In this document: one piece after another, positions 3,266-25,066 of the stretch
How the letters are laid out: each line of letters starts with the position of its first letter
Numbering within the stretch: the stretch's first letter is position 1
IMG/VR virus record: IMGVR_UViG_3300043173_000082
Coordinates: 1-32,498 of that record
Direction: 5' to 3' (one strand)
Source of the DNA: a virus
Taxonomy: Duplodnaviria; Caudoviricetes
Length of the DNA stretch: 32,498 nt
Position numbers and translations under genes: made by a program
The notes under the pieces: generated by a model
Databases searched by the model: none
Told to the model about the DNA's origin: nothing
Seen by the model: the letters and a program-made list of their open reading frames with translations, nothing else

Positions 3266-3498
3266 AACTTGTTCCTGCACAGCTAGAGGCAGTAGCTACC
3301 CTTCAACAGGGTAATAGGGACTTTGCAGTCTTTATGAAAGCTATTGCCGATCACTGTTCAGAAATAAATGAGCGTCATATCAAAAGCCCGGAAAGTAGTG
3401 AGTATATACGAGGACAAGTCTTCGCATTCTCGGACATTCTGGAGACAGTGAATGGCGCTAGTGAAAAAATTAAACGGCTACAACAGCCGAAAACCTAG
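3262..3498 (+). CDS. Conserved small head-region hypothetical protein
   Basis: TTG start overlapping the upstream TGA. Helical 78 aa with a YIRGQV motif of the kind seen in small genes between portal and scaffold. Confidence 0.7.
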   Translation: MKLVPAQLEAVATLQQGNRDFAVFMKAIADHCSEINERHIKSPESSEYIRGQVFAFSDILETVNGASEKIKRLQQPKT

Positions 3499-3507
3499 GA
3501 GAATACA

Positions 3508-4557: not shown

Positions 4558-4576
4558 CTAACTTGAGGGCTTAATC

Positions 4577-5569: not shown

Positions 5570-5574
5570 TTAAG

Positions 5575-5599
5575 GTGGGGGCTTCGGCCCCCGCTTTTT
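5575..5599 (+). terminator. Rho-independent terminator after the capsid gene
   Basis: GTGGGGGC-TTCG-GCCCCCGC stem with a cUUCGg tetraloop, followed by TTTTT. Confidence 0.92.
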
Positions 5600-5611
5600 A
5601 GGGAGAACAGT

Positions 5612-5857
5612 ATGAAGCGATGCCAACGAATAAAGGATGGAGTTCTTTATCCTCACACTGAAGCAAATGCTGCGCTTAGTATTATGCGGGTTGTGGAAGT
5701 TGATGAGGACGGGAATGTATCTAGTGTAATGCCGGACAGCGAACCAACGCCACCAGGATTTCCTGTAGCGGGGGCTGCTATACCCAGTGATTCAGTTGAC
5801 GAGGTAGAAAACCTCAACAGTGACCTGGGTGTACCGGATGAGTCTAACGATACGTAA
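5612..5857 (+). CDS. Hypothetical protein with acidic C-terminus
   Basis: AGGGAG RBS and ATG, 81 aa, post-capsid position. Confidence 0.7.
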   Translation: MKRCQRIKDGVLYPHTEANAALSIMRVVEVDEDGNVSSVMPDSEPTPPGFPVAGAAIPSDSVDEVENLNSDLGVPDESNDT

Positions 5858-6188
5858 TGCCTTTACCCAAGTTAGGCAGACTGTTCAGGATGTAGATGAG
5901 CCGTATAGGCATTCTGATGACAAGCTGTTTGGGTACTTCAATGATGCTTTAGGTGATATTCGCCGCCTGCGTCCTGATTTATTTATCGGGTCGCTTGATA
6001 GTACATGGGTCATTTATGATGACACCAACTTTGACGACCCCTTTCCCATAGACTTTACATATTTTACTACTGTAATTGACTATATGGCGTCAACTGTCGG
6101 TATAGAAGATGATGAGTTTGCTAATGATGGGCGGGCTATCACACTGTACCAACGCTTTGTAACCAAGCTAGTAGGTAAACTCGCATGA
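5838..6188 (+). CDS. Head-tail adaptor-like protein
   Basis: Likely start ATG 5838. Helical pattern RQTVQD...HSDDKLFGYFNDAL..IRRLRPD typical of phage adaptor proteins. Position fits. Confidence 0.7.
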   Translation: MSLTIRNAFTQVRQTVQDVDEPYRHSDDKLFGYFNDALGDIRRLRPDLFIGSLDSTWVIYDDTNFDDPFPIDFTYFTTVIDYMASTVGIEDDEFANDGRAITLYQRFVTKLVGKLA

Positions 6189-6772
6189 ACTTTGTAGACA
6201 TTTCAGTGTTCTACGATGAGGCTTCGTTGCGCCTGTCTGGCGCTCCTACATCTACATTACGCACCGAGCTTGAGGCTACGCTTCGGGAATTCTATGTTCG
6301 TTCTGCTGCATTCATTATAGAGACTGACAAAATAGACGTTGTAGCTAATCAAAAAACCTACAGTTTCAATCCCCAAGTACTGGGAGATATTCTACTTACC
6401 TATGCTGTGCAGATTTATGATGATTCTGATGAAGCCCCAATCCAGCAAAACTTTTCCGGTACATTAGTGCCTGGGGATATAAAATTAGCGCATAAGCCAT
6501 CCAGTAATAAGACAGATGCTATGTCAGCCTGGGTAGCATTAAAGCCAAAATCATATGATGTCATCCCTGAAGGTACTATCACCTACGACTTTGATACCAT
6601 CTTGGATGGGCTAACTGGTCGTATGTTTAATATGCCAGATAGGCCATGGTCAAATGCGCCGCAAGCCGCCTATTATTTACGCCGTTTTAGACAAGGCCAA
6701 GGCCAGGCCAGGGTGCGTACAAGGAGTCTATTTACCCGCGCAGATGCCGGCTGGAGATATCCGCCATGGTAA
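6185..6772 (+). CDS. Second adaptor / tail tubular A-like protein
   Basis: ATGA-coupled. Motifs LREFYVRS and ILDGLTGRMFNMPDRPWSN. Lies between head and nozzle genes. Confidence 0.65.
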   Translation: MNFVDISVFYDEASLRLSGAPTSTLRTELEATLREFYVRSAAFIIETDKIDVVANQKTYSFNPQVLGDILLTYAVQIYDDSDEAPIQQNFSGTLVPGDIKLAHKPSSNKTDAMSAWVALKPKSYDVIPEGTITYDFDTILDGLTGRMFNMPDRPWSNAPQAAYYLRRFRQGQGQARVRTRSLFTRADAGWRYPPW

Positions 6773-7008
6773 TCGGTGGAATTAATTCTGTACCAGTAAA
6801 CAGTACTTACCCTGTAAACGGGGAAAGCGTGCTTGTGATTGTGCAAGCTATAGGTGTTGGCGATGAAATCTGTATAGGGGCTAACCAGAATGATGTAACG
6901 GTGCCGAAAGAATATAATTCAGTATCAATACCAAATGGTAGCAAGGGCATAACTATATTTAGCGAGAACAAAGTTTCTGCTATTAAATATTCTCGGAGTG
7001 AGTGCTGA
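6766..7008 (+). CDS. Small hypothetical virion protein
   Basis: 80 aa, overlaps both neighbours and fills the gap exactly. Confidence 0.6.
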   Translation: MVIGGINSVPVNSTYPVNGESVLVIVQAIGVGDEICIGANQNDVTVPKEYNSVSIPNGSKGITIFSENKVSAIKYSRSEC

Positions 7009-7307
7009 TGTCCATCCTTAATAAATATATTCTCAAGTCTACTGAGCGTAAAAATTACACCATTAAATATGAGAAATGGTTAGAGACAGGTGAAAGTCTG
7101 AGTGGGGCTACTACTGTTGTATCTCCTGTTACAGCCCCGCCATTACAGGTTACCTCTATATTTAGCCCTACTACTAATGAAGTAACTGTGACTGTTGGTA
7201 CTGGTGGGGTAGATGGAGAACTTTATGAAGTAGAAGTAAGCATTACCACAGACCAGAACCAGATAAAAATTGACTGTTTGCAGTTTGATATAAAGGATGA
7301 TTGCTAA
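7008..7307 (+). CDS. Putative fibre-tail adaptor (small beta-sandwich)
   Basis: TGATG-coupled start at 7008. Pattern K...ERKNYTIKYEKWL..GESL...GGVDGELYEVEVSITT. Directly precedes a fibre gene. Confidence 0.6.
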   Translation: MSILNKYILKSTERKNYTIKYEKWLETGESLSGATTVVSPVTAPPLQVTSIFSPTTNEVTVTVGTGGVDGELYEVEVSITTDQNQIKIDCLQFDIKDDC

Positions 7308-8461
7308 TGCAACAGTTTGTTAACAATTATGATGAATTGGTAACCGGGATAGTAAGTCCTGGGGACTTGGTGATTCCTGTCTCTAGTGCAGCAGACCTAC
7401 CGATTCTGTCTGTAGATAATTTTGTACTCCTGACTATTGAAATTACTGAAACAGGTATACGTGAAATTGTTAAGGCCACGGGTGTAGTAGGTAATGACAT
7501 TACTGTGGTTCGTGCCCAAGAGGGTACTATCGCTGGTACGTTTCCTTCAGGAACTATAATTCAAGCCAGGGTAACCGCTGCTAGCCTTAGTGATTTACAA
7601 GGCATTGTGGGTTCCCTAAACGACCTTACAGACGTTAATAATAGTTCGCCATCAAGTCGTGATGTATTGGCATATGACGGTGTGGATAGCTATGACAACC
7701 GCCCTCTTGTTGAACTTGACATAAGTGATTTACAGGCATACCTAACAGATATTACTGGGCAGTCAGTAGGCGACCTTAATGATGTTAATAGTGTTACGCC
7801 TTCAGCCCGTGATGTATTGGCATATGACGGTGTGGATAGCTATGACAACCGCCCTCTTGTTGAACTTGACATAAGTGATTTACAGGCATACCTAACAGAT
7901 ATTACTGGGCAGTCAATAAAAAGTCTTTCTGATGTTTTGACATCAATGACCCCTTTAGAAGGTGATGCCCTAACATATTTATCTGGTGAGTGGAAAGCTC
8001 AAGCTGGAGGGGGTGGTACAGCATTTTGGGATACAGAGAAGATTAAACCACTCGATGAATCTATATTAAATAATGCAACTATTACTGTAGATTCCGATTT
8101 TACTATTGCCCTTGACGCTAGTTCAACGTATGAATTTGAACTCCTTACCTCATTTGACGCTGATAATAATTTCCCAGGTATGAAATACAGAGTAGATTAC
8201 ACAGGGACTGTAATTGAGGACACTGGAAATATAGACCTTCTCCACAAGAATACTGCGTCAACCGTGAACTCATACAGGTTAGGAAGTACCTTTACTATAG
8301 GATTTTTGTTTAATAACAGAGAGGCTGTCCGTATTAAGGGTATTCTCGAAACAGATACTGGTGGTGATTTAAGATACTCTTGGGCACAAGGCACTTTAGA
8401 TGCAGTTTTTGGCACAAATCTATATAAAGGTTCATTGCTAAGAGTTAGGAAACTGATTTAA
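7307..8461 (+). CDS. Tail fibre / receptor-binding protein 1
   Basis: TAATG-coupled start at 7307. N-terminal anchor (TVVRAQEGT), LNDLTDV-type fibre repeats, beta-rich C-terminal head. Confidence 0.75.
   Translation: MQQFVNNYDELVTGIVSPGDLVIPVSSAADLPILSVDNFVLLTIEITETGIREIVKATGVVGNDITVVRAQEGTIAGTFPSGTIIQARVTAASLSDLQGIVGSLNDLTDVNNSSPSSRDVLAYDGVDSYDNRPLVELDISDLQAYLTDITGQSVGDLNDVNSVTPSARDVLAYDGVDSYDNRPLVELDISDLQAYLTDITGQSIKSLSDVLTSMTPLEGDALTYLSGEWKAQAGGGGTAFWDTEKIKPLDESILNNATITVDSDFTIALDASSTYEFELLTSFDADNNFPGMKYRVDYTGTVIEDTGNIDLLHKNTASTVNSYRLGSTFTIGFLFNNREAVRIKGILETDTGGDLRYSWAQGTLDAVFGTNLYKGSLLRVRKLI
7658..7915 (+). repeat. Exact 108-bp direct repeat with 150-bp period (7658-7765 and 7808-7915)
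   Basis: Compared base by base: CGTGATGTATTGG...ACTGGGCAGTCA is identical in both copies and in frame. Confidence 0.97.
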
Positions 8462-10281
8462 TGCTTATATCACTAGACAGTTTCGGTGGGCAGATACCAC
8501 GTATAGGTAGGGAACAGCTACCTAAGAACGCAGCACAAACTGCGAAGAACTGCTTACTATTGTCTGGTGAATTACGTGGACTACACCGTCATAGGGAAGT
8601 AAAAGACCTTACTGCTGTAGGCGGTGATATAGGTATGGCGTTTCGTGTCCACCAGCCCCCACTGCCAGATTACTGGAAAACATTTGTAGATAGGAATTCC
8701 TTTTTCATTAAAGGTCTGATAGTAAACGATGCTTGGGATAGGTATTACTGGACGAGCGAGGATGAATCGTTCCCTATGTACAATACCCTGGCGCGTCTGA
8801 ATAGCAGTGACCCCGCATATAAATTAGGTGTACCACGTCCCGACAATACCCCTACTCTAGTGGCAGATGATACTGGAGTTGGTGATATATATAGCAGGGC
8901 GTATGGCTTCACCTTCGTAACAGAATATGGTGAAGAAGGCCCGCTATCAGAATTAATAGTAGCCAGTGGTAGGCCAGACGATGGCTGGACAATAGGCAAT
9001 ATGGATGTAGTAATGCCTGATGCCGGCCCCTACGCCACTATTACAAAGAATATATACCGTAGTGTTAGCGGTACTCTTGGGACAGCGTTGTTTCTTGTAG
9101 TTGAAGATATACCACTAGCACAAGCCACATACGTAGATTCAGAATCTGATGAAGTAATCGCACTTAACCGCCAGAGCGAGAGTGTGAACTGGTATCCACC
9201 ACCTGTTGATTTAGAAGGTATCCTTACCCACCCAAATGGATTTGTTGTGGGGTTCTCAGGGCGTGATCTTTATTTCAGTGAGCCATATAGACCACATGCA
9301 TACCCACCTGAGTATGTAGTTTCTACTGAACACAAAATTATAGGGCTAGGTATTTACGGCACATCTATTGCTGTAATGACAGAAGGCTTTCCAGCCGTTG
9401 CTAATGGTACCCACCCAGCAACTATGTCGCTCTCTAATAGCCAGTTCTCTGAACCATGCCTATCCAAGTTTAGTATTGTTAGTATGCCTTTTGGTGTGTA
9501 CTACGCAGGGGCTAATGGGCTAATGCTTGTTAACCAGGCTGGTATAAACAACGCTACTGAGAGAATACTTACCAAGGACGAGTGGGAGCTTCAGTATTCC
9601 CCATCTACAATAGAGGCGGCTAGGTGGCAGGATTACTATATCGGTTTTTATTCAGCTGATGATGGCTTTATGTTTATGCCAACTGAACAGCAGGCATCAT
9701 TTACAGAGATGGATAGATACTGGAGACAGGATGCTATCTTTACTGATGCTGAAACTAGCGAAGTATTATCTTTATTTGAAAAACGTGTATTTGAATGGAA
9801 TCCACCAGATGGTATTCCACTAACCTATATATGGAAGTCAAAAGAATTTCGTACTCCTAGGCCAGTAAACTTTGGTGCCTATCGTATTTATTGGGATAAG
9901 AATATATTAACTCCAGCGGCAACTGGGGACATAATTACATATAATACTAATAGGATTAATGCTGGTGCATTGAACGTGTTCAATATGCATTCATTTAATA
10001 GTGGGGATATATATGATATAGACCCTACCTATATTGAAAACAGAATGCCGTTTGGTGGATCACCATTAATTGACACTACAGCAGGTACCCTGACTAATAA
10101 TCTATTGTTACGAGTATTTGCAGATGGAGTATTAAAGTATACGAACTCAGTACTGAATGAGAAAATGATGCGGTTACCTTCAGGTTATAAGGCTGATCGC
10201 TGGGCATTTGAACTTGAGGGTAGTGTGGATGTACGCAACGTAGTTATAGCAGAGACATCCAAGGAGCTGGCCAATGCCTAG
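8461..10281 (+). CDS. Tail nozzle / tail tubular B-like (P22 gp10-like) protein
   Basis: 606 aa. N-terminal FGGQIPR...LP.NAAQ.A.NC, LYFSEPYRPHAYP and YIWKSKEF motifs; beta-propeller-like composition. Confidence 0.8.
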   Translation: MLISLDSFGGQIPRIGREQLPKNAAQTAKNCLLLSGELRGLHRHREVKDLTAVGGDIGMAFRVHQPPLPDYWKTFVDRNSFFIKGLIVNDAWDRYYWTSEDESFPMYNTLARLNSSDPAYKLGVPRPDNTPTLVADDTGVGDIYSRAYGFTFVTEYGEEGPLSELIVASGRPDDGWTIGNMDVVMPDAGPYATITKNIYRSVSGTLGTALFLVVEDIPLAQATYVDSESDEVIALNRQSESVNWYPPPVDLEGILTHPNGFVVGFSGRDLYFSEPYRPHAYPPEYVVSTEHKIIGLGIYGTSIAVMTEGFPAVANGTHPATMSLSNSQFSEPCLSKFSIVSMPFGVYYAGANGLMLVNQAGINNATERILTKDEWELQYSPSTIEAARWQDYYIGFYSADDGFMFMPTEQQASFTEMDRYWRQDAIFTDAETSEVLSLFEKRVFEWNPPDGIPLTYIWKSKEFRTPRPVNFGAYRIYWDKNILTPAATGDIITYNTNRINAGALNVFNMHSFNSGDIYDIDPTYIENRMPFGGSPLIDTTAGTLTNNLLLRVFADGVLKYTNSVLNEKMMRLPSGYKADRWAFELEGSVDVRNVVIAETSKELANA

Positions 10282-10945
10282 CTTAATCACACAAAAAGAC
10301 CTTACTAAAAAAGTACCATATGCAGGTATACCGACTCCTGTTAAGGACTTGGATGCGCTATTCAACACTACCTTAGCCATGCAGGAAGTTCTTGAGACCC
10401 TTATACGCCAGCGCGGTAAGCTAGAGAATTCAGTACTTACTTATGGTGAGACTGAACGCATAATTGAAGGGGTGCGGTTTGATATTGCTAGAATTGAAAA
10501 CATACTCAATATTGTTTATAAGGTAAGTATTGAGGAAGCTATAATGACTTTATCGACCACCACCGCGTTTGCAAATGGGGCAACAATCGCGCCTTACCAA
10601 ACCAGTAAACCTATAGATTCCGAAGCAAGTGTTACGGAAGATTTAGTCGCGGGTACACTTACTATTGGTAAAGATGGATGGTATACAGTAAGTGGATATA
10701 TACAAGCGACTGGCGCTTCATTCAATAATTATTATGGCGCTATTTTAGATATTAATGCAGGAGCAGACCCACATACTTTAGGGGTAAGTGAGTGGATAAA
10801 TGGAACGCCTCAGATGGCTTTTTTTAGTGCGGTTGAAGCCGAATTTAGTGCTGGCGATGTAGTTAAGATTATAGCGTATAGCCAAAGCGGAAATTTAACT
10901 GTAACTGATGCTCACTTATCTATAGAGATGGAATCACTACCATAA
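10274..10945 (+). CDS. Short fibre with coiled-coil stalk and C1q/TNF/BclA-like C-terminal domain
   Basis: N-terminal IPTP...AMQEVLETLIRQRG. C-terminal GTLTIGKDGWYTVSGYI...FSAGDVVKIIAY jelly-roll pattern. Confidence 0.62.
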   Translation: MPSLITQKDLTKKVPYAGIPTPVKDLDALFNTTLAMQEVLETLIRQRGKLENSVLTYGETERIIEGVRFDIARIENILNIVYKVSIEEAIMTLSTTTAFANGATIAPYQTSKPIDSEASVTEDLVAGTLTIGKDGWYTVSGYIQATGASFNNYYGAILDINAGADPHTLGVSEWINGTPQMAFFSAVEAEFSAGDVVKIIAYSQSGNLTVTDAHLSIEMESLP

Positions 10946-10966
10946 TTTTTAACAGGAGAGATAGAC

Positions 10967-11314
10967 ATGCCAAACCGTTCACAACGACACTTACGCGAAG
11001 TCCAGGGCTACGACAGTAATGACCGGCCTTACTATATTCCCGGCCCTGTATGGGATGGTACTGATGTTACAGATCAGGCTGATACTACAGCCGGGCCTAT
11101 CACCCCTCTGGATATTAGTGGGGAATTCTCTACTACATCTGGCCAGGCCATGGAGTTTGATGCTGGAGCATTACCAACTGGGCTGGTGATAGACAGTGCT
11201 ACAGGTATCATCTCTGGTACTCCAACAGCTACCGGTACTTTTGTTGTACGTGCATCAGCAAAAGACGGCTTCGGTGTAGCATACTCAAACCGGTTTGACT
11301 GGGTAATTACGTAA
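10967..11314 (+). CDS. Ig-like (He_PIG-type) domain virion/decoration protein
   Basis: GALPTGLVIDSATGIISGTPTATGTFVVRASAKDG matches the putative Ig signature. Has its own AGGAG RBS. Confidence 0.8.
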   Translation: MPNRSQRHLREVQGYDSNDRPYYIPGPVWDGTDVTDQADTTAGPITPLDISGEFSTTSGQAMEFDAGALPTGLVIDSATGIISGTPTATGTFVVRASAKDGFGVAYSNRFDWVIT

Positions 11315-11436
11315 TGCCTTATACCCCCGCACAATGTCGCAAGTTTGCTGTCATGGCATCGCGGGGGCAAAAGGTACCTGCTGACTGGAAGAAACACTGT
11401 AAGAAACGCAAGCCGAAGGTTAAGAGGAAACGGTAA
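11314..11436 (+). CDS. 40-aa highly basic small protein (not in ORF track)
   Basis: Hand translation gives MPYTPAQCRKFAVMASRGQKVPADWKKHCKKRKPKVKRKR*. TAATG overlaps at both ends. Confidence 0.78.
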   Translation: MPYTPAQCRKFAVMASRGQKVPADWKKHCKKRKPKVKRKR

Positions 11437-13112
11437 TGACACAGCTATACACTAACAATGCCAGTACATTACTGGCCGGTGATATAACCGATTTAGATAC
11501 TATATTTAATGTAGATGCTGGTACGGGTGCGCGGTTTCCTAACCCAGGTGGGGGTGAGTTCTTCATGGTGTCTCTGGAGAATACTGCTGGGGAGCAAGAA
11601 ATCTGTACTTGCACCGACAGAGCTGCTGACCAGTTCACTGTAGTTCGTGGGGCTGAAGGGACTACGCCAGTTGCATTCCTTACTGGGTCTCGTGTTGAGT
11701 GCCGTTTAACTGCCGGCTCAATGGGGCAATTTGCCCAGAAAGACGGCTATACCATGACAGGGGATATTGACCTTGGTGGTAACGCTGTAAAGAACGGCGA
11801 GAGCATCAACGTCCCAATGCGTGGGGATACCGGTGATACTAGCCAGGAAATAGATGTGCCATCAGGCGGTGGGCCTCCTACAATCGGTGGGGATGAGATA
11901 TGGAATGCTGGCAATGATGGTACTGGTAGTGGGTTAGACGCAGACACTCTTGATGATGCTGAGCGTGTTGAGTTTGGTGAATTAGCCAATGCTAATACAT
12001 GGGATGGTAATCAGACTGTTGCTAATGCTACACCGGAGACACCCCTTAAGAATACAGCGGGCACTGGCAAGAGCCGCATTCCTTTCCTTGATAATGCTGA
12101 TGTACTTAAAGGCTACGTCGAGCACGATGCTGATGCAAATACTGTAACTGTAGCCGTACGTGATGCCGGCGATACCGCAGATGCTGCGAAGGTTGTATTA
12201 AACCAAGACGGGTCTATAGAGCTAACAGGTAGTTCGCTTACTAATAATGGTGTTGATGTAATAGACCAGGATGAATTAGATACTGCTACCTCTCCAGTTT
12301 ATGCAGTGAATCCATTTTATAATTATGGCACAGGGGTAGATGGAACTGTTGTAGAAACAATTAATCAGAGCATTCTACCTAGCATATTAAATTATGTGGA
12401 TTACACTATTAATAGTGGTGTAGTAGTTGACCTGTCTTCCATTTCTGGGTTCATAATTATCCGTGCAACAAGTTCTATAACTATTACCGGAACTCTTACC
12501 GTTGAGGGAAAGGGGGCACAAGGAGCGCAAAGTGCTACACCTGGTGTAAGGCAAAATGGTGGTGATGGAATTTACGGAGGGACAGGCGGTGGCGGATTCT
12601 CGATGCTGGATAAATCTGGCTCTGTATTCATGAAAGAAGGAACAGGTGTAAGCCAAGGCCAAGGTGCCACACAGCCGGATGAAGCAATAAATATACTACT
12701 GGAGTATCCCCAGTTACTAGGGGGTGGCGGTGTATTATATAATAGGGGCAACGAGCCAGAAACAGTAGATGCCGGGCCAAGTATAAATAATCCACAGGAT
12801 ACAGTTATATATCCTGTCATTGGCGGCGGCGGGGGCGGACAGGCAAGTAATACATCTCCTGGCGGCCCTGGAGGTGGTGTAATTATGCTAATAGCCCCAA
12901 GCATTACGATTACTCCTACTGGCGTAGTTAATGCTGATGGCGCTGCTGGCGGCGGTACCGCAGGCCGCGGTGGTGGCGGTGCAATTATTGTTGCTACACC
13001 CGCAGGTGGTTACGATGACCAGACAGTAAGTGGGGTACATGCATTAGGTGGAGCTAGTGGTGGTACTTACGGCGGTGGTGATGGTTGGGTCAGGGAACTA
13101 ATTTTACCATGA
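11436..13112 (+). CDS. Tail fibre / receptor-binding protein 2 with glycine-rich C-terminus
   Basis: Same anchor type as fibre 1 (TVVRGAEGT). Fibre motif IWNAGNDGTGSGLDADTLD. Poly-Gly-rich tip. Confidence 0.8.
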   Translation: MTQLYTNNASTLLAGDITDLDTIFNVDAGTGARFPNPGGGEFFMVSLENTAGEQEICTCTDRAADQFTVVRGAEGTTPVAFLTGSRVECRLTAGSMGQFAQKDGYTMTGDIDLGGNAVKNGESINVPMRGDTGDTSQEIDVPSGGGPPTIGGDEIWNAGNDGTGSGLDADTLDDAERVEFGELANANTWDGNQTVANATPETPLKNTAGTGKSRIPFLDNADVLKGYVEHDADANTVTVAVRDAGDTADAAKVVLNQDGSIELTGSSLTNNGVDVIDQDELDTATSPVYAVNPFYNYGTGVDGTVVETINQSILPSILNYVDYTINSGVVVDLSSISGFIIIRATSSITITGTLTVEGKGAQGAQSATPGVRQNGGDGIYGGTGGGGFSMLDKSGSVFMKEGTGVSQGQGATQPDEAINILLEYPQLLGGGGVLYNRGNEPETVDAGPSINNPQDTVIYPVIGGGGGGQASNTSPGGPGGGVIMLIAPSITITPTGVVNADGAAGGGTAGRGGGGAIIVATPAGGYDDQTVSGVHALGGASGGTYGGGDGWVRELILP

Positions 13113-13651
13113 GTGCATCAGGCCAAAAGCATCCTCATTATTATGGTGCAAATCCACCTGCATACTATGGTGACTATACTATTGGCCTGGAGAAAATGAC
13201 TGATGTATTGCTGGAGTTCTCACGTGTTCATTGTGAAGAACTGGAGGAGACGGAACCACGCTGGCTAACCTTTCCTATACGGGCTAACTACCGCATGTAT
13301 ATGCAGGCTGAGCTTGCGAGTAAGATGGTTATGTTTACCCTTCGCCATAAGGATGTACCAGTAGGTAGTCTGCTGTACTTCCTAAAGCAAAGCCCTAATG
13401 TAGCAGGGGCTATGATGGCATCAGACGCTGGGCTGTATATAACCCCAGAGCACCGTAAAGGTAGGCTGGGTATCAGGCTAATGGACTATGCCGAGGATAC
13501 TTTGAAAGCATTAGGGATTCATTATATAGTCCATAGTGACAAAAGCCCCGCCGGGGGTATGAACCTGGGTAAATTATTTAATCGGCAGGGGTACAAACCC
13601 TTTGCTGTTAGCTACGTCAAAGAGATTAATGAGCTGGAGTCTAAGTCATGA
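13109..13651 (+). CDS. GNAT-family acetyltransferase
   Basis: Likely start ATG 13109 (ATGA overlap). Motif A LYITPEHRKGRLGIRLMDYAE and motif B KLFNRQGY. Confidence 0.85.
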   Translation: MSASGQKHPHYYGANPPAYYGDYTIGLEKMTDVLLEFSRVHCEELEETEPRWLTFPIRANYRMYMQAELASKMVMFTLRHKDVPVGSLLYFLKQSPNVAGAMMASDAGLYITPEHRKGRLGIRLMDYAEDTLKALGIHYIVHSDKSPAGGMNLGKLFNRQGYKPFAVSYVKEINELESKS

Positions 13652-15096
13652 AGATTATTAAACGCGCTGTATTTCAGATGACGGACACCATAGGGGAGTA
13701 CATCCACTTAGAAGAAAGCTCCTATGAATATGATGGGCCGATAGCCCATGCAGGCGGCGAAGAAGGCGAAGACCCAATACCGTCACAACTTCCAGCCTGG
13801 GCTAGTAATATCATAAAAGAAAATGCTGAGCTTGCATCAAACTATGGCCTGGCTGAATTTGACTGGGCCAAGGCACAGCAAGGTACACAGCAAGAATTGA
13901 TGGAGGGTATCCTTGAGACACAACAGGGTGCTGCTACCCAGATGTTTGCTAACGCTGATGAATGGCGCGAGCGTTATGCTACAACTTTCCAACCACTGGA
14001 AGACCAGCTTGTAGCCGATGCTGAAGACTATGCGTCTGACTGGCGGCGTGAGCAGGAAGCAGGCCGGGCCGCTGCTGATGTATCTCAGGCATTTGATGCA
14101 GAACGAGAGAGTACCCGCCAACGCCTTGAGGGATACGGCATAGACCCATCCCAAACCAGAGCTGCGGCTATTGACGCTAATGTATCCATGAACGAAGCCT
14201 TAGCGAAGGCCGGGGCACAGAACCAGGCCCGCCGGGATGTTGATGATAAAGCCAGAAATTTACGTGCACAGGCCATACAGCTGGGTATCCCCCTACAGGA
14301 CATGGCGACACAGGCCGAAGCCCAAGGGTTTAATATGGCCGGTGCAGCAGGCCAAACATATAGCCAGAACCTGGCGGCTAGTCAGGGGCTACGCCAGCAA
14401 GCTGTACTGCCATATATGCAGTCAGCAAACCAAGCGCTAGGCCAAACAAGGATAGGTGCTACTCCCGGTACGGCAGATAAACCTGGGTGGGGCGGCGCTG
14501 CTGGTAAAATATTAGGAAGTGCCGCTGGTGCTTACGCTGGTTCAACCGCTGGTTCAGCAGCTATTACAGCAGGGCTTGCCATGATAAAGGACGGCGGCGC
14601 TATTGAGTCAGCTCAAAATAGTCCGTATGCAGCGCCCCCGGCTATTAACGATCCACGCTATCCAATGATGGGGCGCTATGCAGAAGGTGGCCCGGTCATG
14701 CCTATTGAAGGTGGCGGTGAACTCATGCCACGGGAAGCTATGTATGATATGTCCAGAGGCTACAGTAATGTAGGAATGCAAGATGGACAGATTGATGGCC
14801 CTGGCGGCCCGAAGGATGACCTTATTGATGCCAAGCTCAGTGATGGTGAGTACGTAATACCTGCTGAGACTGTTAAATATAAGGGTACAGAGTTTTTTGA
14901 TAAGCTCGTAACCAAGACCAAGGAAGCCATACCGCCACCTCAACAGATGGGCCAGGCCATGGTTACTCCACCACCCAACGTACCAACTGATGTACAACCA
15001 GAAGCGCCGACAGTATTGCCGATGGCATATGGTGGATATGCAGCTATACCTAGTGTGCCCATGGCGTGCGGTGGTTATGTTACGAGGAGAAAGTAA
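13648..15096 (+). CDS. Internal virion / DNA pilot (ejection) protein 1
   Basis: Ala/Gln-rich helical core, Gly/Ala hydrophobic stretch, GPGGPKDDLIDAKLSDGEYVIPA motif. Follows the GNAT, as P22 gp7 follows gp14. Confidence 0.72.
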   Translation: MKIIKRAVFQMTDTIGEYIHLEESSYEYDGPIAHAGGEEGEDPIPSQLPAWASNIIKENAELASNYGLAEFDWAKAQQGTQQELMEGILETQQGAATQMFANADEWRERYATTFQPLEDQLVADAEDYASDWRREQEAGRAAADVSQAFDAERESTRQRLEGYGIDPSQTRAAAIDANVSMNEALAKAGAQNQARRDVDDKARNLRAQAIQLGIPLQDMATQAEAQGFNMAGAAGQTYSQNLAASQGLRQQAVLPYMQSANQALGQTRIGATPGTADKPGWGGAAGKILGSAAGAYAGSTAGSAAITAGLAMIKDGGAIESAQNSPYAAPPAINDPRYPMMGRYAEGGPVMPIEGGGELMPREAMYDMSRGYSNVGMQDGQIDGPGGPKDDLIDAKLSDGEYVIPAETVKYKGTEFFDKLVTKTKEAIPPPQQMGQAMVTPPPNVPTDVQPEAPTVLPMAYGGYAAIPSVPMACGGYVTRRK

Positions 15097-16445
15097 TGGG
15101 TATTAGCGCAGCAGATATTAACGAATTCGTCACCGGCGCTTTCGCTGGGTATAGTTTTTCAAAAGACCAGCAGTTTAGGACACAGCAATTAAAAAAGCTG
15201 GAGCGAGAAGACGAGATATTCAGGGCAAAGCAGAGTGCTGCGACATATGCAGCCGCCGGGCCACAAGATGTTGCAGTACCCCTGCCCAGTGCTGCTGGGC
15301 CAACAGGTGGTGGAGCAGGTGTACCTTTACGGCCACCACCCCCAGGGCCATACAGGAGCCAAACTGCTCCAACAGGTGCTCCTGCTATCCCCACACCAGG
15401 GGGCCAGCCAGGCCAGCCAGGCCAGCCAGGCCAGCCAGGCCAGCCAGGCCAGCCAGGCCAGCCACAAGGTGACCCGGAAGTAGATCAACTGGAAGCGATG
15501 GCTACAAAGTCAAGCGGCCACCCAATCATGATGAAAAAGGACTGGGATACATTCAGGTCTGAGGGAGCCAAGCGGCTCGGTGCTACTGGTGATGTTGGTG
15601 CTGTCACCAAGTGGAATGATTACGTTGATGGCCTTCAGCTTAAGGGATTCAAGCAGAACTCTGGCAATGCTGCCGCGGCTGCAATGATGGGTGATACCAA
15701 AGGTACTGTACAAGCACTTACCAAAGCCTGGGGATATATTGAGTCCGGCTCTACACCACAGATTATGCCAACTGATGACGGTAACTATATGGTTACGTTT
15801 GTCAGTGAGACTGAGATGGATAAGCAGGGTAACCCCAAGCCATCAAAGCGGAAGCCTATTATATTATCACCACAGAGTATTGGTGAGTTGTCCATGGCAG
15901 CGGAAGACCCAGCTGAGTTTGCCAAGTGGAAGGCTACGAATACACGTGCAGAGAAAGCTGAGGGTAGAGCTATTGCAGCAGAAGGTAGAGCAGTTGCAGG
16001 TGAGAAACGGACAGCAGCGAAACATCCAGCAGCACTGCGTAAGACTGAAGCAGAAGCAACAACTGCTGAGGCTAAAGCTGAATTGTCTTCTGAACAGGCA
16101 CTGGCTACCCTACGTGCTACCCAGAGGTCTAAAGCTGGTGATAGCCCTACTGCATGGAAAGGGGTTGATAGACGTTCCCTAAGTAGTTCTGTTACTCGTC
16201 ATATCAAGAACCGTGTAGACACGGGTACCAAAGAGGTATACCAGCTATATGAGGAGAGTGGTAACAGAATAGGGTCTTATATGAATGACCTGGGTAATGC
16301 CATGAAGACCTCAAATACTGAAGCCTTGGCTATTATTGCTGAGAAGCTGGTACAGTATCCGGGGGCACAGATTGCCCAAGACCCCAAGAGTGGCAGAGTG
16401 TTTGCTGTAATTGATGGAAGGCAGATTTCACTAGATAAAATTTAA
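15096..16445 (+). CDS. Internal virion / ejection protein 2
   Basis: TAATG-coupled start at 15096 (MGISAADINEFVTGAFAGY). Pro/Gly-rich linker, then helical regions. Position between pilot and giant protein. Confidence 0.65.
   Translation: MGISAADINEFVTGAFAGYSFSKDQQFRTQQLKKLEREDEIFRAKQSAATYAAAGPQDVAVPLPSAAGPTGGGAGVPLRPPPPGPYRSQTAPTGAPAIPTPGGQPGQPGQPGQPGQPGQPGQPQGDPEVDQLEAMATKSSGHPIMMKKDWDTFRSEGAKRLGATGDVGAVTKWNDYVDGLQLKGFKQNSGNAAAAAMMGDTKGTVQALTKAWGYIESGSTPQIMPTDDGNYMVTFVSETEMDKQGNPKPSKRKPIILSPQSIGELSMAAEDPAEFAKWKATNTRAEKAEGRAIAAEGRAVAGEKRTAAKHPAALRKTEAEATTAEAKAELSSEQALATLRATQRSKAGDSPTAWKGVDRRSLSSSVTRHIKNRVDTGTKEVYQLYEESGNRIGSYMNDLGNAMKTSNTEALAIIAEKLVQYPGAQIAQDPKSGRVFAVIDGRQISLDKI
15402..15464 (+). 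repeat. Perfect 9-bp tandem repeat (GGCCAGCCA)x7 encoding (GQP)7
   Basis: Counted directly. Confidence 0.97.
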
Positions 16446-19400: not shown

Positions 19401-22400
19401 AGGCCGCTACTAAGATTCTATCTAAAGAAGACATCGCCAGGGTAGAGGCGGAGCAAAGAGCTGCGGTCAAAGCTACTGAAATGAAGAAGGTCTCCGAGGA
19501 GAGAGCACGTAAGCAGCAGGCCGAGAAGACCACCGAGGCCATGGAGATGAAGCGCAAGGAGGCTGAGAAGAAACGCCGGGATGCCAGGGAGGCACCGGGG
19601 GTTGTTGTTCCTGAGACTGTGCCAGTAGCGGAGAGAAATGTAGATGGCCAGCAGTTCTATAACAGCTTGGGTCAAATCGTCACTGCTACAGGTAAAATGA
19701 AAGCGCGTGCCGGTGAAGCAATGATTCAGGTATTTACACCATGGACAGTTAAAGAACAGACCGAACAAAACAAGGCGGCTGAGAAAAGTGGTAACGTACC
19801 AACTAAAGGAAAGTATGACTGGTTACCTGAGTATGCATTACAGCCTATAACTAATGGAATTGTTGAACCGCCTGTACAGGTTACCAAAGGTAAAGCGGCG
19901 CGTAATACTGTCGATAATGTACGGCTTGTACATCCTAATGCTGGCACTGCCAAGTCCTTGAAAGGAGAGCAGGGCAATATTCTAAATGAAGTAGTGGACG
20001 CAGTAGTATCACCGGCTAATTCAAACGGGGATATGAACGGTGGGATTGATAAAAAATACATGGAACGCTGGCCGCGGATTGAGTCTATTGTTAAGGCTGA
20101 GATTGTTAAGCGGTATGGCAAAGGCCAGATGCCTATCGGTGATGCGTTTGTTGTTAAAACCGGTGATCCAAACATACCGAACCTTATTGTCTCGCCAACT
20201 ATGGCACAGGCTGGTGGGCAAACTGACGTCAAGATTGCAGGGCTAGCCACTATGGCTGCGCTCAAGGCAGCCGATGATGCAGGTCTTAAGTCGGTGACCT
20301 TCCCAGGTATGGGTACTGGCATTGGTAAGTTGAATCCACAAAAGGTAGGCGTGCAGATGGAGCTTGCCCAGGATTACTTTGAAGCCTATCAAGATGGCGA
20401 CCTGACATGGGAGCAGGCATTACGTGGGTATCGTGCTGGTGTTGATGTCAATGACCATATAAAAAATTCACAGATAGAGTTTCTGGACGCTAAACCCGCT
20501 ATACAACGCGGGGCATACGAACATAAGAAGGCTGCATCCAGAGAAATATCACCTGACAAAGAGCAGGTGTTCACTGGTGATATGCAGGAGATGGTTAAGA
20601 AAGCCAGGCAATGGCAGAAGGATGTACTTGCAGAAGCTAAAGCTGATGGGCGCAAGCTGGTTATATTATTTCATGGTACAGCCAAAAATTTCGTAGAGGG
20701 TGTATCAGAGAGACCCAAGTTATCTAACCCTAATAATGCACACCGTATCACATCAGGTGGTGGGATATATGCTACTCCTAACCCAGCTGACGCTATTCAA
20801 TTCGCTGGTCAACGATATGGTGGGGAGAGTACAGGCATAGTTGGGTGGGCTTGGTACGCTGATGAGTTTGCAGGGATGATGGATAGTAAGCAGGTGTCTG
20901 TCGGTGAAATGACATACATCAGCGACCCAAGAGATTTAGGAAGTAAGGCTGGCCGTATCACTGAATACTTCTTTGACCCTAAGATTATTGCCAGGCAATA
21001 CGATGTCATCATCCATCGGAGTATGGATACAGAAGCTCTTGTAAACATGAGTGTAGAAGAACGCCTCGATATACTTGATGGTCGTAATAAAGCCGCTACA
21101 TTAATGGAGCAGCAGTATAACGGTTATGGTGAGGCCACCGCTGATAATCTTGTAGGTGCCATACTAAGCGCACTTCATACCAGTGACCCCCTTGTGGAAG
21201 TCCTTAATGGAATAATAAACGCAGGGATAGGGCTGAGTGGTATTGATGTACGGGTAGTTAACTCGGCAGAGATGGAGAGTATGTCTGGTAATGCACTGGC
21301 ACACGGGGCATATGTGCGAGGGAGAAATAAACGTACAGGCCAGATAGTCCGTAGAATTTTAATGGGGGAAGCAGGGGTTGATACCCCGCGTAGTGTTAAG
21401 ACTTTAGTACATGAGCTTGTACACGCAGCTACTACAGAGGCATTAAAGACAGACAATAAGTTTGGTCGTAGGCTGAACCGGCTGTTCAAACATACCAAAT
21501 TCTATATGTCTGAAGACCAGTTGAAGGAATATGGGTTCACTAATATAGATGAGTTCATAGCGGAAGCCCTGACTAACGAAAAGTTCCAACGATTGCTGGC
21601 GTCTATACCACCACCTAGTCCTAGTGGGGCTAGTGCATGGACAGAGTTTGGGCAGGCGATTATGCGCTTACTGGGGATAAAGACCTGGGAAGGCGGCAGT
21701 GCGTTATCAGCAGTGTATACCTTAGCTCCTGACTTGATGATGCCGCAGAATGAAATTGAGGTTGGTATAGCTACGGGGTTTAATGATAGAGGGCTTTACA
21801 TAACTACCGCAGAAGAACGTACAGCTGTTGCAGAACAGATGGCGCAGGAGATGGAGGAAGCGCAGGTACTGTATTCAATGTCACCAGGTGAGCAGGCGCG
21901 TACACACAAAGAAAAGCCCGGCGATATTGAGTTCCTGCGTGCTATGCACCATAGGGGTGGTAGCCAGGTAGGTACACTGGCTGACAAGATTCGTAAGGTA
22001 CTGTCAGTCGCCCACCCTAGCCAGGTCAAGAGGTGGGCACGTGATCTGCGTAATGGGACAGTGAATATACGACTGGCCAACATGGCGGCTAGTGATATCC
22101 AGTACGCGCATGAAGAAAAGTTTGAGGGGATGTATCCAGATAAGAAGGATGCAGAGGGAAGGATGCAACCGGTTGATGGCAATCCTCTAAGGGATTACTT
22201 CCGGGCTATACAGAAGGAAGTTGGTACAGCAGGTAAGCTATTGGAAGTGGCGGACAAGATTGATGCCGCGTGGCGTAAGTGGGAACGGTTGGTAGCTGGT
22301 ACTGGCAAAGCTGAGACCCTGAATCGGATTATAGTTGAGTCAACGGCCCATGGTGTTGACCCTTCAGTGGCATGGATGCACCCTCTTAATAAGGCTGCCC

Positions 22401-25066
22401 GAGAGAATCGCAAAACAGGTAAGACCTCCAAGGAAGCACACGCTCGCCTACGTAGGGAGATGATATCCGTAGGGCATCAAGGTCAGCTTATGTATAAGCA
22501 GGCTCGTGACTTCTACAAGAGTACGTTTGACCAGATGCGTAGCCAGGTCGTGGATAACATGCTGGGAATATATGAGCTAGATGGCGTGCGTGGCCTCAAG
22601 CAGAGAATACTAGACTCCAGCAGCAAGCAAGACCTGAAAGAGATGCCGGCCCCCATGGTTACACGGACAGTGGACGGCGAAAGGAAGTCAGTACCGCTCC
22701 CATCATGGGACAAGGTAGTGCAGGCCATAGGCGGCATGTCAGATGTGTTAAACGCCCCCGGCCCGTACTTCCCGCAGATGCGCTTTGGCGAATATGTATA
22801 TGAGTACTACCAGACGACACCACATACTGGGTACGCATCACGCAGCGCCGCGGGGGATGCTGCACGTACCTTGCGGTCAGAATCCCTAGGCTCTAAAACC
22901 CATAACTTCACACAGGAAGAAGATGGTACGTGGGCGTTTGACCACACAGAAACAGGGTTCGGTTCAGCGGATAGCCAGAGTCTGGCGGAAGATGATATAA
23001 ATGCTCTTAGGGCACAAGGGTTCGAGACCAGTACGGTCAATAAGAAAGCTGAACATGAGTTCAGTGATGCGTCCAGCGTTGGCCAAATACTGGCGATGGC
23101 TGACAAGAAATTAAAAGGCAAGGGTGACGAGCGCAACAGGGCAGCACTACGTGAGGCTCTTATTACCATGCTGCCTGAGACATCCATGCAGAAGCGTATG
23201 CTCCGCAAAAAGAATATAAAGGGGGCTAGTGAGGATGGGCGCAGGGTGCTGGCTAACTATGCACAGTCAGCGGGTAAGCACCTGGCGCGATTGAAGCATC
23301 GTAAGGATGTGGACAAGGCATTGATAGGAATGGAGCAGGCGGGTAAGAAGGCTGCTAAAGAAGGTAGGGTTAGTAGCGGCAACATCCGTATGACTGATGT
23401 ATATAATGAAATCAACAAGCGTCACAACATGGATGATTCTACTGGCACGTTTGCTCAGTTCTCAGCTAAGGCTTCATTCCTGGGGATGATATTCTCACCC
23501 AGCTTTGCATTCCTGAATGCCACACAAACCATTGCTATGACACTGCCTGTACTATCAGGTGAATATGGTACGGGTAAGACACTGGTGGCTATGGCTGAGG
23601 CATACAAGCATATACTCGGCCCGGTAGCGAAGGGCATACTGGACACCAGGGCGGGCCTTAAGGGACTGTATGACGATATTGAAATAAATGAATTGCTGCC
23701 AAAAATTATTGAAGGGGTGCGGAAAACTGACACTGAGATGGCAGACATGCTGCAAGTTCTTATGGATAGAAAGATTCTGGATGCTACGTTCTCCATGGAA
23801 ATAAGTGAGACAGCCAAGGGTGGTAAGAAGTGGATAGGTGGCAAGACTACAGACGTACTGGTGGATGTAGGCCGTACTGCACCATACATCGTAGAGATTA
23901 TGAACCGCTCGGCGTCAGCCATGGCGGCCATAGACCTTGAACGTCAGAAAAATCCTAACAGTAGTGTTGAAGAAAAAATTGATAAGGCGCACAAGATAGT
24001 ATCAACCACACAGGTTGACTACTCCATGCGTAACCGCCCGAGGTGGTGGAAGCAGAATGATCTGACAAAAATAATGACCATCTTTAAGATGGTACCACTA
24101 GCTGTGTATATGATATTGGCCACTAACACACGCAAGCTGCTGGGGCCGAACGCTACGTTACAGCAGAGAAAGGAAGGCGCACGTACGTTTGCAATGATAG
24201 CGGCTACGCAGATGATACTGGCCGGTGGTGATGGACTGTTCGTTGAACCTATAAGGATTCTCATAGGGGCTATTGCAGCAATATTTGATGTAGACGAAGA
24301 CGATGATGACTTGCTCAGTGACCCTGATATGTTTTTACGTAACCTGGTATACGACATAACGGGTAGTGAGTCAGCGGCACGGGTAGCGCAAGGTGGCGTA
24401 TTTGCATTGGCTGGTTCAACCCTTGGACAACGTGCCAGCTTTGGGCACCTGTTCTTTATGCATGAACGTGGAGATACATGGGCAGAAGAACTGACCAACA
24501 CTATATTCAAGAGCCTAATGGGGCCAATGTTTGGTCAAACTGATTCAGTAACAACAGCATTCGCACACATGAGTAATGGTGGTAGTCCGTACAAGACCGC
24601 GGAGTACTTGTCGCCCAAGATTATTAAAGACCCGATGAAGGCATACAGATATAGTAAAGAGGGCATGACCGATTTCAATGGCAACCCAATACTGGAGCCG
24701 GAAGCATTTGATAACATGAATTTATTCATGAAATTTTTTGGGATGGGGAGTACAACAGAGAGTGATACGTATACAAAACGTAACATTTATCAGGAGACTA
24801 CCACGCGCAAGACTAATGCAATGCGGTCAGTGATTAACAGATATAAGAACATGAAGGATAAGGATGCGGCGCAGGTTATGCTTGATGAGTATAACGAGGG
24901 GCTATCGTCGGAAGACTTTCGTGACTACGGTGTACGGATGGGAACTATACGCAAGTCCGAACGGGCGCGTAGGAAGCAGGAACGCTTCACAGAAGGGGGC
25001 GTACCTTTTAGGAATAGGAGACAGCAGGCTCAGTTTGAACGCCGTATGCGTTCCTTTAAGGAATAG
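16445..25066 (+). CDS. Giant internal virion 'polyvalent' protein: macrodomain + ADP-ribosyltransferase-like + zincin metallopeptidase + PLxRFG-type region
   Basis: 2873 aa. SPANSNGDMNGGID (aa 1189 on) and FPGMGTGIG (1286 on); FHGT (H1410) with GIYAT (Y1442); HELVH (1656-1660) with EFIAE (1703-1707); YFPQMRFGEY (2108 on). Last gene of the virion operon. Confidence 0.85.
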   Translation: MTILTQAWSDVDEETEEVVPGPTPSAPMFATEPAPGVPEKPIAAQQEPVDTEAPPPPPPSPSPNMVSVEWQGEGAEVDTAVTTEESDEDFLARARGDIDPVKAPEERGWWNNSMRIIGDRLAGVGANVAKLVTQLEDKAEEKFGGLGGIYFDESGVNYASPDEWQKMQDAGEVDLFTRLGETDEVSPFGAEKDADWEEMKRLFKEEGVLSGEAWLELGDFAQETGVQSVADMLAISLSLPLYVAQWAVDIGRDRAKNQGEEASLKHTVDALPWAAGAAALEKFGVKGITGAGRNVVEKAGKEALDKGVLAATARVTTEGGRAARREAGTEFAQEQIEYAGEVTGTPVPFNIAESLERGAQGAVGGGAAGGAGGTAVAGYREITRKNKKQELDIIGPVDDQGKPLQYVPESQDSLEAQLEAMQEGHKQGVLVTTGEAMPDIPDGYTATEIEGEGTLIHKEGDTQAVELATSGRMGTVLGYGTDTKPEKAEAVIVVKDAKGRTINEIAVDDSNVDAVIEAQRGIAEAGGAVNIMSVDDALASRAIDTDKEKGVMAPEQMQEMAEYLNMVSESDSPDAANQLLDTISNEYGPKVAGDIQKLALGTPTAEPAAPVAAEAPATVQEPGAPGEPVTPVTEVTVEQARAQEIVPTQSDTAAPDNTPLARELAGGLNTFLNEDKKIRSVTSQKGRARNITEGLGLQQSPLMERIDLVDSMLGAIAAQLDTLAEQGYNIKPLRDIFVRNTPKGKRRIGLKKAREGGVLRNIELKQKGRGISAGIDVEALAAEDITAAEQGGVSLKQTGRVTNVVLDDIVQRINDKMTEVMETGPAIKTGAIPGAAEGKPKISKKAVKKVAPKPVEAAPTKAAEAKQISQFRAAEQAPEPEVVIGRGGTAEVSKKGEETRVARKERLKKVAEKRAAKAKAPKVEEEKVPKPTPKKQVEAKEIAKKRTLGMLHDTAKEKAAEKLKAQQKKETQQRKEAKEARQERMEAATKILSKEDIARVEAEQRAAVKATEMKKVSEERARKQQAEKTTEAMEMKRKEAEKKRRDAREAPGVVVPETVPVAERNVDGQQFYNSLGQIVTATGKMKARAGEAMIQVFTPWTVKEQTEQNKAAEKSGNVPTKGKYDWLPEYALQPITNGIVEPPVQVTKGKAARNTVDNVRLVHPNAGTAKSLKGEQGNILNEVVDAVVSPANSNGDMNGGIDKKYMERWPRIESIVKAEIVKRYGKGQMPIGDAFVVKTGDPNIPNLIVSPTMAQAGGQTDVKIAGLATMAALKAADDAGLKSVTFPGMGTGIGKLNPQKVGVQMELAQDYFEAYQDGDLTWEQALRGYRAGVDVNDHIKNSQIEFLDAKPAIQRGAYEHKKAASREISPDKEQVFTGDMQEMVKKARQWQKDVLAEAKADGRKLVILFHGTAKNFVEGVSERPKLSNPNNAHRITSGGGIYATPNPADAIQFAGQRYGGESTGIVGWAWYADEFAGMMDSKQVSVGEMTYISDPRDLGSKAGRITEYFFDPKIIARQYDVIIHRSMDTEALVNMSVEERLDILDGRNKAATLMEQQYNGYGEATADNLVGAILSALHTSDPLVEVLNGIINAGIGLSGIDVRVVNSAEMESMSGNALAHGAYVRGRNKRTGQIVRRILMGEAGVDTPRSVKTLVHELVHAATTEALKTDNKFGRRLNRLFKHTKFYMSEDQLKEYGFTNIDEFIAEALTNEKFQRLLASIPPPSPSGASAWTEFGQAIMRLLGIKTWEGGSALSAVYTLAPDLMMPQNEIEVGIATGFNDRGLYITTAEERTAVAEQMAQEMEEAQVLYSMSPGEQARTHKEKPGDIEFLRAMHHRGGSQVGTLADKIRKVLSVAHPSQVKRWARDLRNGTVNIRLANMAASDIQYAHEEKFEGMYPDKKDAEGRMQPVDGNPLRDYFRAIQKEVGTAGKLLEVADKIDAAWRKWERLVAGTGKAETLNRIIVESTAHGVDPSVAWMHPLNKAARENRKTGKTSKEAHARLRREMISVGHQGQLMYKQARDFYKSTFDQMRSQVVDNMLGIYELDGVRGLKQRILDSSSKQDLKEMPAPMVTRTVDGERKSVPLPSWDKVVQAIGGMSDVLNAPGPYFPQMRFGEYVYEYYQTTPHTGYASRSAAGDAARTLRSESLGSKTHNFTQEEDGTWAFDHTETGFGSADSQSLAEDDINALRAQGFETSTVNKKAEHEFSDASSVGQILAMADKKLKGKGDERNRAALREALITMLPETSMQKRMLRKKNIKGASEDGRRVLANYAQSAGKHLARLKHRKDVDKALIGMEQAGKKAAKEGRVSSGNIRMTDVYNEINKRHNMDDSTGTFAQFSAKASFLGMIFSPSFAFLNATQTIAMTLPVLSGEYGTGKTLVAMAEAYKHILGPVAKGILDTRAGLKGLYDDIEINELLPKIIEGVRKTDTEMADMLQVLMDRKILDATFSMEISETAKGGKKWIGGKTTDVLVDVGRTAPYIVEIMNRSASAMAAIDLERQKNPNSSVEEKIDKAHKIVSTTQVDYSMRNRPRWWKQNDLTKIMTIFKMVPLAVYMILATNTRKLLGPNATLQQRKEGARTFAMIAATQMILAGGDGLFVEPIRILIGAIAAIFDVDEDDDDLLSDPDMFLRNLVYDITGSESAARVAQGGVFALAGSTLGQRASFGHLFFMHERGDTWAEELTNTIFKSLMGPMFGQTDSVTTAFAHMSNGGSPYKTAEYLSPKIIKDPMKAYRYSKEGMTDFNGNPILEPEAFDNMNLFMKFFGMGSTTESDTYTKRNIYQETTTRKTNAMRSVINRYKNMKDKDAAQVMLDEYNEGLSSEDFRDYGVRMGTIRKSERARRKQERFTEGGVPFRNRRQQAQFERRMRSFKE

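Follow-up and report, generated by a model that had tools for sequence, protein, structure and literature searches.

In the viral DNA record IMGVR_UViG_3300043173_000082 (Duplodnaviria; Caudoviricetes), whose 32,498 nucleotides were analysed in full and are called the window here, a macrodomain (Macro) is followed by a predicted His-Tyr-Glu (H-Y-E) ADP-ribosyltransferase (ART) within a single giant phage protein. We propose that the two domains form a mobile cassette in the cargo slot of an injected polyvalent protein, and that Macro acts as the eraser or product handler of the ART, a reading to which we assign a probability of roughly 45%. Residue and genome positions refer to the open reading frame (ORF) at 16445-25066 of the 32.5 kb window, P-numbers denote related proteins, and L-numbers denote loci.

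The macrodomain and the ART-like domain

Residues ~1172-1320 are certainly a macrodomain, as the first-pass annotation, made from the sequence alone, had proposed for residues ~1160-1310. The Pfam search matched PF01661 at residues 1188-1301 with 42.9 bits (cut-off 22, E 5.6e-11), the model matched macrodomain folds with Z 10-11, and all motifs quoted in that annotation were in frame, namely GNILNEVVD from residue 1177, SPANS from 1189, and PGMGTGIG from 1287. The two-domain model, with a predicted local distance difference test (pLDDT) score of 59.5, was informative for the Macro fold only. The closest PDB sequences were TTHA0132 and chain 5m3i, the latter being M. tuberculosis DarG per its PDB title and second both by sequence and by Foldseek. 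Macro carries the MacroD signature N-x6-GGID (N1192 and D1202). MacroD-type enzymes undo O-linked ADP-ribose on proteins and nucleic-acid ends, and their motifs are Nx6GG[VLI]D, with the catalytic Asn and Asp, and a G[VIA][YF]G loop with a ribose-positioning aromatic (PMC8120803). Of 148 stand-alone homologues of Macro, 135 had the first motif and none (0/148) had G[VIA][YF]G, indicating that the lack of the aromatic is a family trait. By its N/D motif, Macro would take off ADP-ribose that is O-linked (as Asp/Glu esters or on nucleic-acid end phosphates), or else process free ADP-ribose (ADPr) derivatives.

Alignment to 5m3i placed the glycine matching DarG G119 at G1292, and not at G1290, where the first-pass annotation had suggested a mutation. 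The same alignment matched M1253 with the catalytic K80 of DarG, a position where 143 of the 148 stand-alone homologues had PTM and none (0/148) had PTK. Macro was the most conserved part of the giant protein, sharing 83, 71, and 46% identity with P0002, L015, and P0154, for which the C-terminal scaffold gave 50, 45, and 27%. Weak Macro_2 (PF14519) matches were present within the Macro clade, and the yeast ADPr-1''-phosphatase Ymx7 was among the tied fold matches (Z 10.0, 171 residues aligned). A macrodomain of a related family is fused to a dual-specificity phosphatase in P0099.

The H-Y-E ART-like pattern that had been noticed behind the macrodomain also held up, with LFHGT from residue 1408 (H1410), GGGIYAT from 1438 (Y1442), and ITEYFF from 1505 (E1507) in frame. 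H1410-G-T and E1507 were retained in 4/4 aligned homologues at 20-66% identity, and the position of Y1442 was Tyr in three of the four and Phe in L015. Between the two acids put forward earlier, conservation decided for E1507, which we assign as the catalytic acid; E1488 was rejected because its position was not conserved in the four aligned homologues. Identity of this domain to P0002 and L015 was 68 and 33%, while P0154 was not detected.

Library searches with the ART-like domain gave no family above cut-off (PARP, E 0.06-0.25), and the ART profile, run against PDB sequences, retrieved nothing but unrelated rows. The stand-alone model of the domain (pLDDT 73.6, predicted template modelling score 0.73) carried the His, Tyr, and Glu on strands at model residues 35, 67, and 132. 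In a structure search of 48,161 chains, ART folds, by our assignment of the rows, occupied the first 17 rows and 43 of the best 50. The scores were Z 5.6 for RhsP2 (root-mean-square deviation, rmsd, 3.9 over 100 residues), 5.4 for diphtheria toxin (rmsd 3.1 over 91), 5.2 for exotoxin A, and 4.8 for KptA, with only a distant likeness to DarT (Z 3.2-3.3). The known substrates among the fold neighbours are RNA, protein, and RNA phosphate ends. The best Foldseek rows were Tpt1/KptA (E 0.04-0.1) and a phage RNA 2'-phosphotransferase. Provided that the ends align without gaps, the matched ranges (model 29-144, diphtheria toxin chain 15-160) would put H1410 and E1507 on H21 and E148 of the toxin. As a lead only, language-model neighbours at 0.90 included ART-PolyVal clusters, with PF18760 in 19-22% of members. 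An ART fold is thus well supported, but indirectly, as the evidence is the agreement across the list and not any single row of it, and the fold together with the triad predicts that the domain transfers mono-ADP-ribose. Fold checks had been proposed for both domains, and both pointed to the expected folds, in the case of the ART through individually weak matches. A complex prediction of Macro with the ART scored 0.00 and counts neither for nor against contact between them.

Distribution of the tandem and the domain that replaces Macro

The order Macro, ART, and zincin-like metallopeptidase (MPTase) was found in four distinct phage proteins: that of the window, P0002 (L001, L014, L016), L015, and P0003/P0154 (L017). 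The viral survey for this adjacency that the first-pass annotation had called for therefore returned three other distinct proteins and, since P0002/L001, L015, and P0003/L017 show the same order, the tandem is no assembly accident. An ART followed Macro in all distinct polyvalent proteins holding this Macro (4/4), all four tandem carriers retained the HExxH of the MPTase, and the same DUF927 gene comes after the tandem proteins of L015 and L017 as after the window protein. Among 59 scaffold relatives, Macro was found only in the window protein and P0002; one further scaffold relative was located (L019). Another relative, P0161, has two MPTase domains (HExxH at 376 and 833). Searches aimed at the ART gave no ART relatives beyond P0002, and a search of 1.8 billion sequences was filled by macrodomains. 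The isolate-phage search returned Macro matches only, 0 of 33 records spanning both domains, and the prokaryote-genome scan returned 3 weak Macro fragments only. The cassette is rare, being known from four distinct proteins and one variant, all of uncultured phages.

In quick trees, the four tandem Macros and one stand-alone gene (L018) formed one clade (48 of 53 rows kept; Shimodaira-Hasegawa-like approximate likelihood ratio test, SH-aLRT, 99). The scaffold tree rejected a single clade of the five ART carriers (approximately unbiased test, p-AU 0.003, on 20 of 61 rows): P0003 lay far off, and P0158-P0160, with neither Macro nor ART, lay closer to the window protein. This one Macro clade occurs on two scaffold branches that are unrelated to each other, so that the pair probably travelled as a cassette; one fusion followed by later movement as a unit is the simplest reading, repeated loss being the alternative to transfer. 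The two domains are linked evolutionarily, the polyvalent Macros of this clade being followed by an ART on both scaffold branches. The stand-alone Macro gene (L018:1836-2552) has a bacterial-looking context and keeps the post-Macro helix; it is possibly a captured fragment.

P0157, which was nested in the scaffold clade of the window protein, retains an H-Y-E ART before its MPTase; blastp did not detect this ART, which was recognised by its motifs and by a profile match of 21.3 bits (at most 5.5 in shuffles). The Macro slot directly upstream of it (residues ~54-164) holds an OGFr_N-like domain. Its top Pfam match was OGFr_N (PF04664) with E 0.008 and 16.1 bits (cut-off 22), and a profile of 7 viral OGFr_N proteins scored it at 33.7 bits (independent E-value 1e-10) with both motifs aligned, shuffles reaching at most 3.1. 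The seven seeds, all over the Pfam cut-off, came from a motif scan of 12 loci from which 5 spurious ones were dropped; an earlier profile with those 5 included gave 29.9 bits on P0157. This type of ART had a globular partner directly upstream in 5/5 cases. Among the 59 scaffold relatives, none of the ART-PolyVal carriers (0/7) lists Macro, NADAR, ARH, or Nudix, and the Macro and OGFr profiles were blank on them. This replacement, which the first-pass annotation could not have seen, is to us the most telling observation. We think it likely that the putative OGFr_N-like domain of P0157 does a job similar to that of the macrodomain. The surroundings of the 7 viral OGFr_N genes lent no support to a link of OGFr_N with ADP-ribose, as their 46 ORFs included no member of the Macro, NADAR, or ART families. 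OGFr_N scans of genomes gave 0/2 and 0/301 and carry no information, the controls being silent too, and a language-model search with the OGFr-like part of P0157 gave no usable match.

Two of the seven viral OGFr_N genes stand directly behind a T4-like portal gene (L028:2662-3171) or a DUF4055 gene (L032:2698-3357), the latter presumably portal-like, which hints at head association. At L030:2860-5388, an 843-aa viral protein ending in OGFr_N adjoins a DVNP gene.

Proposed action of the pair and competing explanations

What is observed is the presence of the two domains, their placement ahead of the MPTase, and the fact that they occur together. From homology and gene position, the polyvalent protein would be packaged and ejected with the DNA; its ART, to judge by fold and triad, would then mono-ADP-ribosylate a host macromolecule using host NAD+, and Macro, by its N/D motif, may remove or bind the tag of the ART or its by-product. 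More speculatively, the tethered eraser might keep the writer net-silent during protein production, so that neither the cell making the protein nor molecules of the phage itself are harmed, and a cut by the MPTase after ejection would then release the one from the other. The O-linked ADP-ribose reversed by MacroD-type enzymes is what H-Y-E PARP-like enzymes write, which supports a coupled writer-eraser pair. A more far-reaching version holds that the phage injects a self-contained reversible ADP-ribosylation module, in which the writer, from an H-Y-E ART clade not yet classified, depends in every case on a tethered eraser and stays silent until the zincin cut, and in which OGFr_N is a new, fold-unrelated class of ADP-ribose-processing enzyme acting on the product of this ART. 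The last element is suggested because an OGFr_N-like domain replaces Macro beside the same ART, but we regard this version as unlikely when taken as a whole.

Several results weigh against Macro being the eraser of this ART in an injected protein. Independent events are few (about one fusion, one transfer, and one swap), and L015 and P0003 were found via Macro, leaving only P0002 and P0157 as unbiased tests of whether the ART needs a partner. The slot before the MPTase also takes other cargo, as with InPase in RHph_TM3_14A and P0178, and showed no recognised domain in P0158-P0160; it is a general cargo slot, and adjacency alone therefore means little. No ART was found among the ORFs of at least 70 aa around the stand-alone Macro gene of L018. 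Conservation is much higher in Macro than in the ART, which fits a fixed small-molecule substrate. The MacroD aromatic is missing from Macro, which reads G-I-G-K at residues 1292-1295, and Macro may therefore bind instead of cleave. Each ART fold match is singly inside the chance range of the tool (Z <8; Foldseek E >0.03), and the link of OGFr_N to ADP-ribose is unproven. Finally, no homology to gp69 of phage JC1, the virion protein discussed below, was seen, as 64 matches included no Burkholderia phage.

A competing explanation, which we find somewhat unlikely, is that the domains are independent cargo: the ART would hit a host target, Macro would destroy host-made soluble ADPr derivatives (immune signals, ADPr-1''-phosphate, O-acetyl-ADPr), and the two would travel together as gene neighbours only. 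Phage macrodomains have been argued to counter mainly such soluble derivatives and perhaps to be packaged in the head (PMC9503650), and the Macro_2 matches, the tie with Ymx7, the slow evolution of Macro beside a fast-evolving ART, the stand-alone gene of L018, and the promiscuous slot all agree with it. However, 4/4 polyvalent proteins with this Macro also have the ART, including one on a distant scaffold whose ART is down to ~20% identity, and the slot beside the ART of P0157 was refilled and not emptied.

Rather improbable is a role in capping nucleic-acid ends, by which ADP-ribose placed by the ART on the terminal phosphates of RNA, or of the linear DNA on entry, would shield them from nucleases or sensors until Macro removes it. 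RhsP2, the top structural neighbour, is an RNA-modifying ART, and the Foldseek rows for Tpt1/KptA and the phage 2'-phosphotransferase point the same way. The MacroD enzyme SCO6450 strips ADPr from RNA and phosphorylated DNA ends (PMC8120803), and delivery alongside the genome would suit the role. Protein-modifying toxins score equally well in the fold search, however (Z within 1), the ART-like domain has Tyr where the H-H-h RNA-repair clade has its second His, and no nucleic-acid-binding module was identified.

We consider it very unlikely that the second domain transfers nothing, whether as an NADase, as a decayed ART, or as a module that binds NAD+ or ADPr. The rows of the structural search include NADases and RES proteins with this fold, and the lack of a family above cut-off, the weak Z scores, and the Phe of L015 would fit; yet the His and Glu stay unchanged across homologues of 20-66% identity and are present in P0157, they may superpose on the diphtheria toxin pair as described above, and NADase ARTs are scarce in phages (PMC9503650). 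The counter-defence suggested by the first-pass annotation, in which Macro would clear phage DNA of the ADP-ribose that DarT attaches to thymidine, in the manner of DarG or of the phage precedent AdfM (PMC13309987), is hardly credible in spite of the rank of 5m3i and the retained N22 equivalent, because the Lys required in DarG (K80; PMC5179494) and kept as K78 in AdfM (PMC13309987) is Met here and in nearly all homologues, many other macrodomains score as well as DarG in the fold search, and AdfM is expressed late and guards packaging (PMC13309987), a task that few injected copies would probably not suit.

The giant protein, its gene context, and related systems

The giant ORF closes a podophage-type virion module, of which it is the last gene (Table 1); the minus strand after it encodes a DUF927 primase/helicase and an SNF2 helicase. 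With disparate domains in one chain, a zincin HExxH with a downstream Glu, and a location in the virion module, its sequence is that of a phage polyvalent protein of the pattern described by Iyer in 2017 (PMC5512222). The C-terminus is common to 'DarB-like'/PLxRFG proteins. The MPTase region resembles internal virion proteins and N4-like virion RNA polymerases (E 2e-5 to 8e-4), and because of this and the gene position the protein is predicted to be packed in the virion and likely to be injected with the DNA. In phage JC1, a giant DarB-like protein encoded at the same position scored second-highest among the proteins of the virion (PMC9144972). A sequencing-run search found the window DNA in one run, a marine sediment metagenome that is possibly its source, and listed no RNA run. 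Among cultured phages, Rhizobium phage RHph_TM3_14A and its kin come closest (capsid identity 58.8%, similar gene order).

Table 1. Features of the giant protein and its surroundings in the window
Feature	Position	Strand	Basis
Virion-module context: portal, major capsid, tail adaptor, tail fibres, internal virion protein, GNAT, two further ORFs	904..16445	+	family/profile matches
Predicted polyvalent protein (PLxRFG/LPD39-type, 'DarB-like'), 2873 aa	16445..25066	+	phrog_10089 E 2e-43 at aa 1935-2868
Macrodomain, aa ~1172-1320, MacroD-type Nx6GGID	19958..20404	+	Pfam E 5.6e-11, identity to relatives, fold
Predicted catalytic pair N1192...D1202 (N-x6-GGID)	20018..20050	+	motif from PMC8120803; 135/148 stand-alone homologues
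M1253, position of DarG catalytic K80	20201..20203	+	alignment to 5m3i; K80 role from PMC5179494
Second glycine loop GTGIGK, aa 1290-1295, without MacroD Tyr/Phe; G1292 = DarG G119 position	20312..20329	+	alignment
Helical Macro-ART linker, variable, shorter in P0003	20405..20653	+	model and comparison
Predicted H-Y-E ART-like domain, aa ~1404-1520: H1410 (20672), Y1442 (20768), E1507 (20963)	20654..21004	+	homologue alignment, model, fold search
Zincin-like metallopeptidase (MPTase): HELVH aa 1656-1660, downstream EFIAE aa 1703	21122..21754	+	motif; virion-protein similarity
LPD39 domain, aa 1915-2043	22187..22573	+	Pfam PF18858 E 1.3e-11

Some further features were seen in and around the giant ORF. 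A small globular region at 17666-18097 (residues ~408-551) has a weak P-II match (E 0.065) and shares 48% identity with P0002 and 32% with P0158. P0002 opens with an SLT transglycosylase (residues 41-146), and none was found at the start of the giant protein (16445-16900). The GNAT acetyltransferase gene (13085-13651) sits inside the ejection-protein block, and RHph_TM3_14A has one too. In the latter phage, L023:15568-18651, annotated as 'putative integrase', matches DUF927 like the primase/helicase of the window.

Compared with known systems, the protein resembles the ART-PolyVal proteins (PF18760), which are likewise giant virion-module proteins with an MPTase, LPD39, and an H-Y-class ART and are predicted to be injected, but whose active site is H-Y-D (PMC5512222) as against H-Y-E in the window protein; PF18760 matched none of the ART-like members (0/4) at E up to 10. 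The closest cultured relative, EVB41_084 of RHph_TM3_14A, has a homologous MPTase and C-terminal scaffold but carries InPase in the cargo slot, without Macro or ART. T4 Alt is also a head-packaged ART delivered with DNA, as is predicted for the window protein, but it is of the R-S-E class and stands alone without an eraser domain (PMC5512222). The closest one-chain analogue is human PARP14, which joins a hydrolase-motif macrodomain to an H-Y-class ART (PMC10499325); PARP14, however, is a eukaryotic antiviral enzyme with several macrodomains, the window pair is viral and predicted, and nothing suggested that the two fusions share an origin. DarTG2/AdfM pair an ART with a macrodomain and conserve the loop-1 Asn (PMC5179494, PMC13309987), but they are two genes and not one chain, the catalytic Lys is absent from Macro, and the window ART is only distantly DarT-like. 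Macrodomain-fused SirTM (Mfs1, PDB 8rsn) and phage sirtuin-Macro pairs also couple an ADP-ribosylating enzyme to a macrodomain, but there the writer is a sirtuin, not an ART fold, and no virion ejection protein is involved. Tpt1/KptA belong to the H-H-h class, in contrast to the Tyr/Phe and Glu of the ART-like domain, and show weak fold likeness only.

The first-pass annotation had called the tandem a new system, which was overstated: ARTs are the commonest protein-modifying domain in polyvalent proteins (PMC5512222), and head-packaged phage Macro proteins have already been predicted (PMC9503650). The main text of PMC5512222 mentions no macrodomain, although its full architecture list, which lies beyond that text, may include the tandem. 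Outside RNA-virus polyproteins, viral macrodomains are typically stand-alone (PMC9503650). The literature searched contained no description of Macro and an ART in tandem in a virion protein, nor of this ART clade, nor of OGFr_N next to an ART or in connection with ADP-ribose.

The rarity of the cassette limits its general weight. If our proposal is true, the product of the ART would be the substrate of both Macro and the OGFr_N-like domain, which would provide biochemistry for OGFr_N, a conserved domain of human OGFr, none having been found for the family in the literature searched. The tandem would then be a virion-delivered viral counterpart of the writer-eraser macro-PARPs, and it would show how a phage carries a toxic ART without poisoning the cell that produces it.

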